Source: Eledone cirrhosa (taxonomy: Eukaryota). From it: a stretch of DNA of 64,000 bases. Location of the stretch: contig OZ024759.1 in the NCBI GenBank assembly GCA_964016885.1, positions 11,718,001-11,782,000 on the forward strand, given 5' to 3'. Both the position numbers and the translations under genes were made by a program. The number at the start of each line of letters is the position of its first letter. The first letter of the stretch is position 1. Below the pieces are notes generated by a model. The model was not told where the DNA came from. It did no database searches and saw only the letters and a program-made list of their open reading frames with translations. This document shows positions 278 to 50,503 of this stretch, piece by piece.

Positions 278-342
278 TATTTTATCTGATGAAAGCACAC
301 CATAATTTAACTTGGTGTCCTTGAAATATGTATAATGAAATA
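278..342 (+). ncRNA. Type I hammerhead ribozyme (family A)
   Basis: tattttat-CTGATGA(286-292)-aagcacacca/taatttaact/tggtgtcctt-GAAA-tatgta-TA-atgaaata. Stems I and II pair, stem III is the near-palindrome ATATGTAT, predicted cleavage after AUA. Confidence 0.85.
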
Positions 343-390
343 AATATGGTTTATAAATATAGTTTCCATTTGTTAATATCGTATATATAT

Positions 391-680
391 ATTGTTATAC
401 TTGGGGAGGGTCATATTTGTGTAATATTGCCAGAATTAATAACAGAACACACTCACTGTTTGGTTGGTTTTCGCTTCTCGCTGTCTTTTATATCTGTAAT
501 CTAGCTTACTCGGTCCTCAATGTTGCCATTGACTGACCGACGGTCACAAATATCACAGATACAATATAGACATAAACACATATATATAGTTTACATAATT
601 TACATAAATCTTTCGTTGCACATCTGCAACATCGTCAGTGGTGTTATATTTTCCTCCTGTTGTGTTGTATGTCTACACCA
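391..680 (-). mobile_element. PLE-like 3' fragment with partial hammerhead core
   Basis: Terminus attgttatacttggggagggtcat matches the ends of the 51923-53137 element. Minus strand 638-611 reads CTGACGA-tgttgca/gatg/tgcaac-GAAA, but stems I/III could not be closed. Confidence 0.5.
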
Positions 681-766
681 TATATATATATATATAAAAT
701 ATATATATATATATATAAAATAAAGTTAAATAAAAGTCAAATGATTAAAATTTAGCTTCGTTTATT

Positions 767-821
767 ACTGCTATATATATTTCAGTGACAGCTATCTTTG
801 GCTGTGACCTCTTCAGGCAGT
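767..821 (-). ncRNA. Type I hammerhead ribozyme
   Basis: Minus strand: actgc-CTGAAGA-ggtcacagc/caaagata/gctgtcact-GAAA-tatata-TA-gcagt. 5-bp stem I, palindromic stem III ATATATAT. Confidence 0.85.
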
Positions 822-1286
822 TTGAATTAGTATGGTATAGACAAGTACATATGTTGTTTAGGTGTATAATATTGTCAATACTCTGATATGCCCAGTTCCT
901 TGTTGGGTTGTTATTTCACTGAGGAACTGGAGCCATATGAATTCAAACAAACGAATTTCAGTGTCAAAGGTCCCCTTCTCCTCTCATTGGTCAGTTATTA
1001 GAACATTCCTCATTCTAAGTGTTGTTATTGTTGGAGTTAACTTAAAAATTGATAAAATGGTAGAGGGGACAAGGTGTTAAAGGAACAAAATAACAAGAAA
1101 AGTGTCAAACTTCCCATTGGTCAGTTCCGAGATATATATATATATATATATACGTGTGTATAATGGTAGCTATGGTGCTTCCATAGGCGGTATGCCAAAA
1201 TTAGCACTCAATATTCATACAGAGCAGAGTGTGAAGAGTATAAAAAAAACGAAAAATCAGGGATGCATCTGGACTCAGTTCATTGC

Positions 1287-1375
1287 GTGTTACAATTGTT
1301 TCGCCGGCAGGTAGCTCGAGACATGGCCCCTGTATGGATCTGGCTGATTCTACGGCTGCAGGTTCCTTCGGACAC
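1287..1375 (-). ncRNA. Degenerate hammerhead-like motif
   Basis: Minus strand: gtgt-CCGAAGG...GAAA-caattg-TA-acac. Stem I and palindromic stem III present, core has two changes, stem II unclear. Confidence 0.35.
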
Positions 1376-1728
1376 GGGTAGTTCGTTCGGAGGTAATTTT
1401 CTCACTGGGGTGTTATCGTCAAAAAAACACCTTAAAAAAACATCTTCCACATATATATATATATATGGAGAGATAGAGTGAGAGAGAGGGGATGTGGAAG
1501 AGATATAGAGGAAGAATCAACCCCAGTACTAGACTGGTACTTTAGATATATATATATATATATATATAATTATTAATAATAATAAATTTCAAGACTAAAA
1601 TCCAAACTTTGCTTAAACTTTAATCTGTTATTTTAATAAATATATATATATATATATATATATATATATATATATATATATATATATATATATATATATT
1701 TATATATATATATATATGTATATATATA

Positions 1729-1866
1729 TAACAAAGGAGGTGTGGTAAGGAACCAGTTGGACCAAAACGCACCAGAGTACTCAATACTTAGGGTAGTAGA
1801 GTGGGAAATAGGAAAAAGTATGACCCCGACGGCAGAGCTCAAGCCGTTCCGACGGCTATTTCTGGA
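1729..1866 (-). mobile_element. Family C PLE-like fragment (3' half of hammerhead plus tail)
   Basis: Homologous to 16495-16652, 37256-37462, 41443-41719 and 49990-50075; starts at (TA)n. Confidence 0.65.
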
Positions 1867-2510
1867 GAGATAGAGTGAGAGAGAGGGGATGAGGAAGAGA
1901 TATAGAGGAAGAATCAACCCCACTATTAGACTGGTACTTTTTTTTATCGACCTTGAAGGGATGAAAGGCAAAGTTGACCTTGGTGGGATTTGAACTCAGA
2001 GAGCAGAGAGGTGGAACAGATACCATAAAGTATTCTATCTGATGCTCCAACAACTCTGCCAGGGGTTGGTACTTTGTTTTATTCACAAAGTTGGCTTAAA
2101 AACCATTGATAAATACATAAATATGGAAAATAAAAATAAAAATAAAATTAAGTAATGAGAAAAGGGGAAGGGGTAAAGAAGGGCAGATCTGGCTGTCTGT
2201 GGAAGTAGTGGAAAGGGGCTATAAATGAGAGGAAACGGAGGGGTAAATGAGGACTCTAGGGCCACAGAAAAGGGGAGGGGAACGGTGATGGTCTCTGAGC
2301 CTAGCGCGGGGCAGTGTTTAGATATTTCTAGTGTGGAATTATTTGTTAACTCTAGGAAGAGAAGAGGAAAAAAATTATTAGTGAATAATTTTATTTACTT
2401 AAATATTTTGATTAATAAACAGTAAAAAAAACAAAAAACATTTAAATAATTGAAAAAGGAGGAAGGGAGGGGTTAGACTCTACACCCCTCAGGGGTTAGA
2501 CTCTACACCG

Positions 2511-47970: not shown

Positions 47971-48158
47971 TAATTGTTTCTACTTTAGGCACAAGGCCAG
48001 CAATTACCCAGTGCATTACTGGTACTTTATTTTATCGACCCCGTAAGGATGAAAGGCAAAGTCAACCTCGGCGGGATTTGAACTCAGATCGTAAAGGGAC
48101 GTAACTATGCTGGAAAGCATGGCGTCCGACCCTCTACCGATACTGCCAATCCACCGCC
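47971..48158 (-). mobile_element. SINE family 2, full length
   Basis: Reverse complement of the family consensus. Confidence 0.88.
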
Positions 48159-48269
48159 TACAAGTCCCAAGATAATAATAAATATCAAGTAGAAAACTTT
48201 TCATTGCCTTCATTTTACCATCCATTTCACATTGTTTTAGCCATGACCTGGATGCAGCCTAGCCTCCTT

Positions 48270-48856
48270 TGAAATACAATAGTATATATAGAGTAATGTA
48301 AATGTTATGTGAGGTAAAGCCTTTACTGTGAAAATACAATAGTATATATAGAGTAATGTGAATGTTATGTGAGGTAAAGCCTTTACTGTGAAAATACAAT
48401 AGTATATATAGAGTAATGTAAATGTTATGTGAGGTAAAGCCTTTACTGTGAAAATACAATAGTATATATAGAGTAATGTGAATGTTATGTGAGGTAAAGC
48501 CTTTACTGTGAAAATACAATAGTATATATAGAGTAATGTAAATGTTATGTGAGGTAAAGCCTTTACTGTGAAAATACAATAGTATATATAGAGTAATGTA
48601 AATGTTATGTGAGGTAAAGCCTTTACTGTGAAAATACAATAGTATATATAGAGTAATGTAAATGTTATGTGAGGTAAAGCCTTTACTGTGAAAATACAAT
48701 AGTATATATAGAGTAATGTGAATGTTATGTGAGGTAAAGCCTTTACTGTGAAAATACAATAGTATATATAGAGTAATGTAAATGTTATGTGAGGTAAAGC
48801 CTTTTCTGTGAAAATACAATAGTATATATAGAGTAATGAAAATACTAAAGGGTTAA
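48270..48856. repeat. 60-bp minisatellite (~10 copies) ending in a MITE terminus
   Basis: Exact 60-bp period; ends aatactaaaggg|TTAA. Confidence 0.93.
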
Positions 48857-49209
48857 CGAACCCTTTTCACAGCAAAGGAGTGATGTAAATTCTAAAGGAA
48901 CTGTTTTGATAGCAAAGGAGTAATGTAAATGCTAAAGGAAGCGTCTTTATAGCAAACTACCTGAAACCAGTAGAAAAAAAAATTAAAACAACTTTGACTT
49001 GGTAGCTTCTGCTCCATGGGGCAGCTAAAGTGCTCCAATAACGTCACATTTATCAATACATCAGTCAACTTTTGGTGGTTAAAACAGCAATGATGACCTA
49101 CAATTTAAATATCTTTAGAGGTTGTATTTAAAAACAAGATTATTTATGTTATCTCAAAAAGTATAAACAGTAAAAGTATTTATCAAATATTAATTATTGA
49201 ACTCATTAA

Positions 49210-49915
49210 TAATTGTTTCTACGTTAGGCACAAGGCCAGCAATTACCCAGTGCATTACTGGTACTTTATTTTATCGACCCAGTAAGGATGAAAGGCAAAG
49301 TTAACCTCGGCGGGATTTGAACTCAGAATGGCAAGGGCTGTAACTCTATACGTCAAAGCATGGCGTCCGACCCTCTACCGATACTGCCAATACTGCCATC
49401 ATTAATAATATTGATTCTTCTGCTGTCATGACATATATTTATATGTCATTATATATAGGGGGTGGATTGGCAGTATCAATAGAGGGTCGGACGCCATGCT
49501 TTCCAGCATAGAGTTACGTCCCTTTACGATCTGAGTTCAAATCCCGCCGAGGTTAACTTTGCCTTTCATCCTTACGGGGTCGATAAAATAAAGTACCAGT
49601 AATGCACTGGGTAATTGCTGGCCTTGTGCCAAACGTAGAAACAATTATATATAGGGGTGAATAAAGTACCAGTAATGCACTGGGTAATTGCTGGCCTTGT
49701 GCCTAAAGTAGAAACTATTATATATAGGGGGTGGATTGGCAGTATCAATAGAGGGTCGGACGCCATGCTTTCCAGCATAGAGTTACGTCCCTTTACGATA
49801 TGAGTTCAAATCCCGCCGAGGTTAACTTTACCTTTCATCCTTACGGGGTCGATAAAATAAAGTACCAGTAATGTACTGAGATAATTGCTGGCCTTGTGCC
49901 AAAAAGTAGAAACAA
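49210..49915. mobile_element. SINE family 2 cluster: one - copy and two + copies
   Basis: 49210-49390 (-), 49457-49647 (+), 3' fragment 49660-49718, 49727-49915 (+). Confidence 0.85.
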
Positions 49916-50232
49916 TATATATATATATATATATATATATATATATATGTGTGTGTGTGTGTGTGTGTGTGTGTGTTTATATATATATATAACGAAGGAA
50001 GTGTGGTAAGGAACCAGGTGGACCATAACGCACCAGAGTACTCAATACTTTGGGTATAAGAGTGGGTAATAGGTAATATATATATATATATATATACATA
50101 TATAATGTAGGAGGTGAGTTTTATTGTAGTACAATAAAGCAATGCAGATATCGGATAAGAAGCACTCTACAGTTTGTCGGACTGGAGTATAAATAATATA
50201 TAAGATCAAAAGATGGTTAAATGAGTTCCAGG

Positions 50233-50303
50233 TATTTTATTATGCGCATTTCAAAAACAAATATCATCATGCAATAACATTTGTGTTTTCATCAGATAAA
50301 ATA
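50233..50303 (-). ncRNA. Type I hammerhead ribozyme (family A variant)
   Basis: Minus strand: tattttat-CTGATGA-aaacacaaatgttat...atgatatttgttttt-GAAA-tgcgca-TA-ataaaata; palindromic stem III ATGCGCAT. Confidence 0.85.
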
Positions 50304-50432
50304 GGGAGACATGATATGAAGGTTAAAAAACACTTGTGGATAGTGCAGTTGATTTAAAACTGCACTATGTTGATATGTTGATTTAAAACTGCACTATCCA
50401 CAAGTGTTTTTAACCTTCATATCGTGTCTTCC

Positions 50433-50503
50433 TATTTTATCTGATGAAAACACAAATGTTATTGCATGATGATATTTGTTTTTGAAATGCTCATAATAAA
50501 ATA
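50433..50503 (+). ncRNA. Type I hammerhead ribozyme (mirror arm of foldback ~50205-50535)
   Basis: Same motif with stem III ATGCTCAT (one change). Confidence 0.75.

Follow-up and report, generated by a model that had tools for sequence, protein, structure and literature searches.

Hammerhead motifs with self-complementary stem III in probable pseudo-LTR ends of truncated Penelope-like elements on an Eledone cirrhosa contig

Hammerhead ribozymes have been described in the pseudo-LTRs (pLTRs; LTR, long terminal repeat) of Penelope-like elements (PLEs), in families rich in compensatory changes (Cervera and de la Peña 2014; PMC4209133). In that study, positions 15.2–16.2 and loop 3 are palindromic, with palindromes that differ between families, and opposite-strand hammerhead pairs lie 100–700 bp apart; a Schistosoma motif did not cleave as a monomer, and its cleavage as a dimer was low. 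The minimal hammerhead ribozyme (min-HHR) consensus of the same work requires a helix I of 4–5 bp, an extra base between positions 9 and 10.1, and a G10.1–C11.1 pair. The dimer model is restated in PMC6765202, dimer-enhanced cleavage has been reported for amphibian satellite hammerheads (PMC7229834), and a preprint (10.64898/2026.07.22.740005) connects retrozymes to pLTRs. PLEs are known to leave inverted copies truncated at the 5′ end, to carry tails of 30–40 bp on one end, and to target microsatellites (PMC8557442, PMC3846280, PMC11167929), cleavage was reported in one study to be unnecessary for PLE insertion in vitro (PMC11167929), and a squid genome was found to hold 235 hammerhead loci (PMC6962438). 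Here, we analyzed 64,000 nt of the Eledone cirrhosa genome (contig OZ024759.1, positions 11,718,001 to 11,782,000; the whole stretch is called the window), which contains at least eight hammerhead-bearing families, with emphasis on one of them, family A. We consider it likely that family A consists of hammerheads in the 3′ pLTR ends of 5′-truncated PLEs, with a stem III predicted to work in pairs. A literature search by title or abstract start returned no paper on these particular families, which is not proof of absence.

Hammerhead motifs and the copies of family A

The eukaryotic DNA of the window is rich in A+T and dense in microsatellites (GC content of 18–57% per 2 kb; 101 tandem-repeat rows), a repeat texture reminiscent of cephalopod genomes, and no host genes were found in it. 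A plain type I core pattern (CTGANGA-N16-40-GAAA-N6-TH) matched nine times, whereas 100 shuffles averaged 0.38 matches and never gave more than 2, and stem III was self-complementary in eight of the nine matches. A structure scan filtered for self-complementary stem III returned 14 hits vs 0–2 in each of 12 shuffles. Because this filter biases the question, the scan was repeated with stem III content ignored, which again gave 14 hits in the window, compared with 12 summed over 30 shuffles. Specifically, 10 of these 14 hits were self-complementary (6 strictly and 4 by G·U pairs) vs 1 of the 12 null hits; the others were 50441+, 52945+, 52119−, and 12823−, the last of which is probably a chance hit. 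Among background 8-mers (GAA+A-6N-T), 25 of 256 are self-complementary with wobble and 16 of 256 strictly. Moreover, the inner four bases were self-complementary in all five lineages with an 8-nt stem III (A1/A2, A3, B816, D, and E), for which the chance expectation is ~1e-4 with wobble allowed and independence assumed, while the lineages may be related. The hammerhead motifs in the window are real, and the palindrome across unrelated families is clearly non-random.

Family A is present at four loci, each an inverted pair, which together hold seven complete copies and a further copy reduced to its 3′ half; the copies derive from about three lineages. In all seven complete copies, the core elements CUGANGA, GAAA, and U16.1–H17 occur in order, with stem I open; stem I has 8 bp, stem II has 9–15 pairs, and stem III has 2 bp in the monomer or up to 8 bp in a dimer. 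Stem III is a strict palindrome in two of the complete copies, self-complementary by wobble in four, and broken in one. The commonest form, ATATGTAT (four of seven, all A1), depends for self-pairing on two central U·G wobbles. An original prediction, made from the sequence alone, had listed stem III sequences of family A at 326, 42029, and minus ~50245, and the full type I layout of stem I, CTGANGA, stem II, GAAA, stem III, and UH is indeed present at these places (278–342(+), 41983–42045(+), and 50233–50303(−)). The listed stem III sequences are there as well, but ATATGTAT pairs with itself by wobble only and is not a palindrome. The statement that stem III stays palindromic throughout family A does not hold: a copy within the same range that had been left out, the A3 right arm (50433–50503+) with ATGCTCAT, breaks it. 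Likewise, the forms given for other families (ACAATTGT, ACGATCGT, and ACGT) exist, but AGAACT in family F52 and ATGT at 36755(−) are non-palindromic. Nor is stem III necessarily loopless, as it had been called, since the monomer has 2 bp and a 4-nt loop.

The arms of the inverted pairs differ at few positions (2 of 164 in A1a and 5 of 167 in A3; 99.2% identity over 252 nt in A1b) and are therefore not independent copies. Calling A3 a member of family A is loose, judging from the sequences: A3 and A1 share only 22 nt by blastn, and their alignment covers little beyond the motif. At every locus, (TA)n borders the ends or lies close to them, and a tail of ~36–50 nt with T(T/A)GAGTGCT is confined to a single arm, so that the combination of inverted pair, one-arm tail, and microsatellite flank is found at four of four loci; the arms measure only ~125–175 nt. 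The related motif TTGAGTRCT occurs 14 times in the window (1.2 expected), in the 3′ tails of family A and of other families, and is a candidate for a shared signal for the start of reverse transcription or for the endonuclease. It often serves as the 3′ strand in an ACTC..GAGT hairpin, the inner stem of which differs between A1 and A3. We found no tandem family A copies and no 150- to 450-bp hammerhead arrays within the window; near family A pairs are all inverted, and the nearest same-strand copies lie 8.45 kb apart, belong to different subfamilies, and are mismatched. Metagenome and viral contigs gave no matches to a family A pattern that put no constraint on the inner stem III bases.

Pairing and variation of the stems

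Pairing was examined in four A1/A2 sequences (A3, which could not be aligned, and one identical arm were excluded). All 83 cells pair. Two-sided changes are found at exactly two pairs, each in stem II, a count reached by 34 of 500 shuffles. Stem III shows three invariant pairs and one one-sided change, and stem I shows one-sided G·U changes at two pairs. The structure-preserving change in stem II is thus real but modest. The two two-sided stem III changes within family A are confined to one arm of A3, a distant lineage whose other arm breaks the palindrome, and the case for stem III covariation within the family is thin.

For variation in sequencing reads, positions 195–388 were used as the target at 80% likeness, which collected 3115 contig pieces from run X1, 27,971 reads from X8, 15 from X5, and 2 from X6. 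The figures that follow cover the 40 of 49 variant rows listed. No core position varied (0 of 12), compared with 8 of 10 loop positions (Fisher p=1.4e-4); variation was found at the single N7 position (1 of 1), at 1 of 6 free stem III positions, at 2 of 16 in stem I, and at 7 of 18 in stem II, with no significant difference between stem III and stem II (p=0.62). The sole change in stem III, 330 G>A, is one-sided (27% in X1; 27% and 45% in X8) and equals the difference between A1 and A2. An origin of ATATGTAT and ATATATAT by CpG decay of ATACGTAT was not supported, as no C was listed at 329 among these 40 rows. Reads with loose ends at 306 were found in X8 (11,038 reads) and X5, and changes at 311, 312, 317, and 321 appeared in >90% of the same-direction X8 reads. 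Together, these ends and changes imply another subfamily with G–C at 294/321 and U–A at 298/317, and most of these reads may come from one restriction site-associated DNA (RAD) locus. A C·C or C·U mismatch lies near the stem II base at 296/319, 42001/42022, and 50451/50480, in B816, and in the family E motif E63; it occupies stem II position 4 in A1, A2, A3, and B816, and neither 296 nor 319 carried a listed variant (0 of 2).

These results bear unevenly on what had been claimed for the family. Stem II changes while still pairing, as proposed, but only to a modest extent, with two two-sided changes. The core has been kept, whereas stem I, said to be kept with it, has one-sided G·U changes at two pairs. 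The stem III palindrome stands as a non-random pattern across families, but its covariation within family A comes down to one A3 arm. The proposed selection on ribozyme structure agrees with the invariant core, the variable loop, and the compensatory stem II changes.

Carrier elements, proposed working, and alternatives

Family A is placed among PLE ends because of its layout and not because of a linked open reading frame (ORF), so its own PLE origin is an inference. A longer inverted pair at 51923–53137 carries the end of an ORF ~200 nt upstream of the F52 hammerhead, which we annotate as the C-terminal remnant of a GIY-YIG endonuclease. With the fragment 52562–52747, HMMER returned 33 proteins at E<=0.001; Pfam GIY-YIG was found at E<=0.01 in 8 of the 14 proteins scanned (4 above the cut-off), and several relatives have a Cys motif upstream of GIY-YIG, a feature of Neptune/Nematis PLEs (PMC8557442). 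The best hit, P0001, was discarded as an unrelated repeat protein, and a word-index protein search with the endonuclease fragment gave no hit. A profile built from the endonuclease relatives matches both F52 arms, with an E-value that is circular for F52, and Pfam on 192 stop-to-stop frames (>=50 aa, outside tandem arrays) found neither reverse transcriptase (RT) nor GIY-YIG.

We next considered the energetics of stem III, estimated from nearest-neighbour energies in an arm-swapped dimer model. The 2-bp monomer stem with its 4-nt loop costs +2.9 kcal/mol, and the predicted dimer stems reach −0.8 (ATATGTAT), −1.8 (ATATATAT), and −9.1 kcal/mol (ATGCGCAT). The short self-complementary stem III is hence predicted to be stable only when two ribozymes pair, and on this model family A ribozymes would cleave as dimers. 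The dimer signature named in the original prediction thus finds both a published precedent (PMC4209133) and an unfavourable monomer; the tandem copies that it expected in the active RNA have no counterpart in the window, where near pairs are all inverted.

By analogy with the literature, tandem masters are postulated. An active master element in partial tandem would yield one transcript with two ribozyme copies, the two stem III strands would pair antiparallel with stem I arms swapped, and the paired ribozymes would cut after H17 and trim the RNA. A lone 3′ copy would stay mostly uncut and be reverse-transcribed whole, a step that all seven complete copies, which span the cleavage site, would fit. 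Selection on masters would maintain core, stems, and palindrome, and the copies in the window are likely inactive insertions now decaying at random. The inverted pairs themselves cannot act as dimers because the partner is antisense and the two arms fold onto each other in read-through RNA (169, 124, and 163 pairs). The idea that insertions commonly begin at the cleavage site was dropped: X1 depth, a coarse measure, has no step at 334/335 (1.80 vs 1.87 million).

Several observations weigh against the PLE and dimer interpretation. The Rfam hammerhead models had no match to E<=10 at 225–400, 50190–50340, or 36340–36460, and the 150 of 252 Rfam matches listed included no hammerhead, the hits being noise of the microRNA-like hairpin and small nucleolar RNA-like kinds. 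Folding z-scores were not significant (−0.88 and −1.62). No RT or endonuclease remnant was found beside family A by the 192-frame Pfam scan or the endonuclease-relatives profile, and F52, the sole family with an ORF remnant, has a non-palindromic stem III. Dimer formation stabilizes the commonest form, ATATGTAT, by no more than 0.8 kcal/mol, and the broken ATGCTCAT costs +1.2 kcal/mol. In the reads, the 3′ flank (343–384) varies as little as stem III does (at 1 of 42 positions), and mapping bias therefore contributes to the pattern; in X1, 317 G>A reaches 32% without a matching 298 C>T (2%), and the closing pair is probably broken by 322 T>C, a change present in 4483 X8 reads. Unlike the min-HHR consensus, family A lacks the extra base and G10.1–C11.1 (its closing pair is A–U) and has an 8-bp stem I and an 8-nt stem III. 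Finally, most invertebrate retrozyme hammerheads, the stem III of which is described as 2 bp and a tetraloop, are reported to cleave efficiently (PMC7229834).

This last point also favors the view that the same elements cleave as monomers, with an extended, bulged stem I and the C·C/C·U mismatch docking and thereby stabilizing the 2-bp stem III and the palindrome inherited or secondary. The predicted continuation of A1 stem I past a 1-nt bulge, the recurrent mismatch at stem II position 4, invariant at 296 and 319 among the rows listed, and the marginal dimer gain of ATATGTAT are consistent with monomer cleavage, which would nevertheless leave self-complementary inner bases unneeded, and they are present in five of five lineages (four strictly, A1 by wobble), even if relatedness of the lineages weakens the ~1e-4 figure. 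On balance, we regard monomer cleavage as unlikely. Somewhat more doubtful is an extension of the dimer model in which stem III would serve as a family-specific pairing code, in a distinct subtype that docks the C·C/C·U stem II mismatch on the bulged extended stem I. A1/A2 and A3 have the same stem I, so arms could be swapped, and mixed A1/A2–A3 stem III is predicted at +1.3 to +7.1 kcal/mol, compared with −0.8 to −9.1 for matched pairs; if true, divergent palindromes would keep Penelope families that reside together from inducing cleavage in one another.

It is improbable that family A, instead of being the truncated end of a coding element, derives from PLE ends as a retrozyme-like, non-autonomous element whose copying proceeds in trans from RNA in tandem or circular form. 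Such an origin would suit the absence of an ORF at all four loci, the short arms, the high repetition of the family (3115 X1 contig pieces), and the derivation of retrozymes from pLTRs in the preprint 10.64898/2026.07.22.740005; against it, the window has no tandem units, inverted pairs with one-arm tails match the truncation pattern of PLEs, and contigs extend upstream of 219 (loose ends). It seems hardly credible that the palindromes arose without selection, simply from shared ancestry and from a genome rich in A+T and (TA)n. In favor of such an origin, the local microsatellite does resemble ATATATAT and ATATGTAT, only ~3 family A lineages exist, and stem III is not significantly better conserved than stem II in the reads; against it, the GC-containing palindromes ATGCGCAT, ACAATTGT, and ACGATCGT occupy the same site and 8 of 9 core-defined motifs are self-complementary vs the 25 of 256 background 8-mers.

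Neighbouring families and comparison with described systems

The coordinates of family A and of the other annotated features are collected below.

Table 1. Features annotated in the window
Feature	Position	Strand	Remarks
A1a right arm	278..342	+	Stem III ATATGTAT at 326; inverted pair 37–384; predicted cleavage after 334
A1a left arm	80..144	−	Motif identical to right arm; stem III ATATGTAT
A1a one-arm 3′ tail	1..36	−	Contains TTGAGTGCT; cut by window edge
A1b right arm	25953..26017	+	Inverted pair 25809–26060; tail 26061 to ~26110; stem III ATATGTAT
A1b left arm	25852..25916	−	Family A1 hammerhead; stem III ATATGTAT
A2 hammerhead	41983..42045	+	Stem III ATATATAT at 42029; two two-sided stem II changes vs A1
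A2 inverted partner, 3′ half only	41843..41912	−	Partial stem II, GAAA, ATATATAT, stem I 3′; tail ~41790–41830
A3 hammerhead, distant A1 relative	50233..50303	−	Stem III ATGCGCAT (50249–50242); stem II of 15 pairs; tail ~50150–50190
A3 right arm	50433..50503	+	Stem III ATGCTCAT (50487); palindrome broken, difference at 50491
B816 hammerhead	767..821	−	Stem III ATATATAT; C·C at fourth stem II position
Family C minimal hammerhead	25279..25313	−	Stem III ACGT (25310−)
Family C decayed relatives	36755, ~16818	−, +	36755 with ATGT and a broken stem II pair
Family D hammerhead	36373..36419	−	Stem III ACAATTGT (36415−)
Family D copy	44833..44881	+	Core changed to CCGAAGA; stem III ACAATTGT (44838+); different stem II
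Family E hammerhead	63369..63517	+	Stem III ACGATCGT (63376+/63363−); 116-nt stem II domain
Family E mirror copy	63222–63370	−	Other arm of perfect inverted repeat 63165–63574
F52 hammerhead	52941..52983	+	Stem III AGAACT (52945+), non-palindromic
F52 mirror copy	52081–52123	−	Stem III AGAACT (52119−)
GIY-YIG endonuclease C-terminal remnant, Penelope-like	52481..52747	+	One stop codon
GIY-YIG remnant, inverted copy	52305–52505	−	
TTGAGTRCT sites	10, 1203, 1776, 15313, 16541, 26079, 36817, 37303, 37564, 38165, 41491, 41663, 41809, 50037		

The family E inverted repeat has 205-nt arms with no differences and is therefore likely very recent; its inversion centre lies ~6 nt upstream of the core, as is also the case at 54650. 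Family G hammerhead-like motifs, located at 15598(−), 25783(−), 32563(−), 32587(+), and 54654(+)/54646(−), have a 4-bp stem III with the palindromic loop CTAG and a stem II of only ~3 bp, with a predicted self-duplex of −12.8 vs −1.4 kcal/mol for the hairpin. Family J (~1860(−), 16612(+), 37377(−)/37420(+), and 41565(−)/41597(+)) shows a 5-bp stem III after GAAA, and the loop of this stem holds the palindrome GAGCTC (self-duplex −26.9 vs −6.5 kcal/mol). The inspected copies lack the CTGANGA half, with the inversion centre immediately upstream of GAAA. Three families (C, G, and A1) follow one another head to tail on the minus strand at 25200–26110 with short (TA)n between them, which suggests successive insertions into the same microsatellite. 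At 385–830 (−), the end of an F52-related element (36-nt match) adjoins A1a and bears two hammerhead-like motifs, at 816 (ATATATAT) and 638 (AGATTT).

Other repeats were also noted. The tRNA-like head (Rfam tRNA, 32.1 bits) of a repeated element resembling a short interspersed nuclear element (SINE) lies at 15157–15220 (−), with related stretches at ~24850–25190 and 35460–35790, and a piece of this element appears to have been amplified as 45-nt arrays at 33110–33568 and 57718–60846. A near-perfect inverted repeat at 39460–39559 and beyond, with GAAATGCG(C/T)AA after each arm, is possibly another truncated element, and the segment 26379–26549 (−) matches a C2H2 zinc finger only weakly and below the cut-off (E 6e-5).

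Among described systems, family A resembles the PLE variants with a small palindromic helix III (Fig. S3: Aedes aegypti, Drosophila willistoni, Marsupenaeus, and Saccoglossus) in its type I topology and long helix II. As in the variants of PMC4209133, the palindromic 15.2–16.2 positions differ between families (CGCG vs GGCC within Aedes), the stems covary, and opposite-strand pairs lie 100–700 bp apart, with dimer activity proposed there; that alignment also contains rows in which A–U closes helix II, position 17 is A, or the extra base following A9 is absent. Family A appears to differ from them in a stem I of 8 bp that continues past a bulge, a C·C/C·U conserved in stem II, and a palindrome centred on wobbles, features that may already have been described (Lünse et al., RNA Biol 14:1499, cited in PMC6765202). 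The min-HHR consensus, in comparison, is matched by families C and F52, which have the extra base after A9, G10.1–C11.1, and a short helix I. Judging by these features, family A fits the variant group with small palindromic helix III and not the strict minimal consensus.

The F52 locus recalls the Neptune/Nematis PLEs (PMC8557442) in that a GIY-YIG C-terminus is followed by a hammerhead, and inverted 5′-truncated copies, one-arm tails, and microsatellite targets are shared with them; unlike those elements, the window holds no RT remnant, the clade-defining Cys motif is present only in relatives, and no ORF is linked to family A within the window. Metazoan non-LTR retrozymes and the newt and axolotl satellites (PMC7229834) likewise have a type I hammerhead with weak helix III, but they form 150- to 450-bp tandem repeats, whereas the copies in the window are dispersed inverted pairs. 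The palindromic dimer signature is already published in substance (PMC4209133), so the present finding adds families to a known class and leaves the general picture of ribozymes and retrotransposons unchanged. Within that class, the natural stem III variants, with predicted dimer gains from +1.2 to −9.1 kcal/mol, provide a panel for studying the role of PLE hammerheads and their need for a partner.

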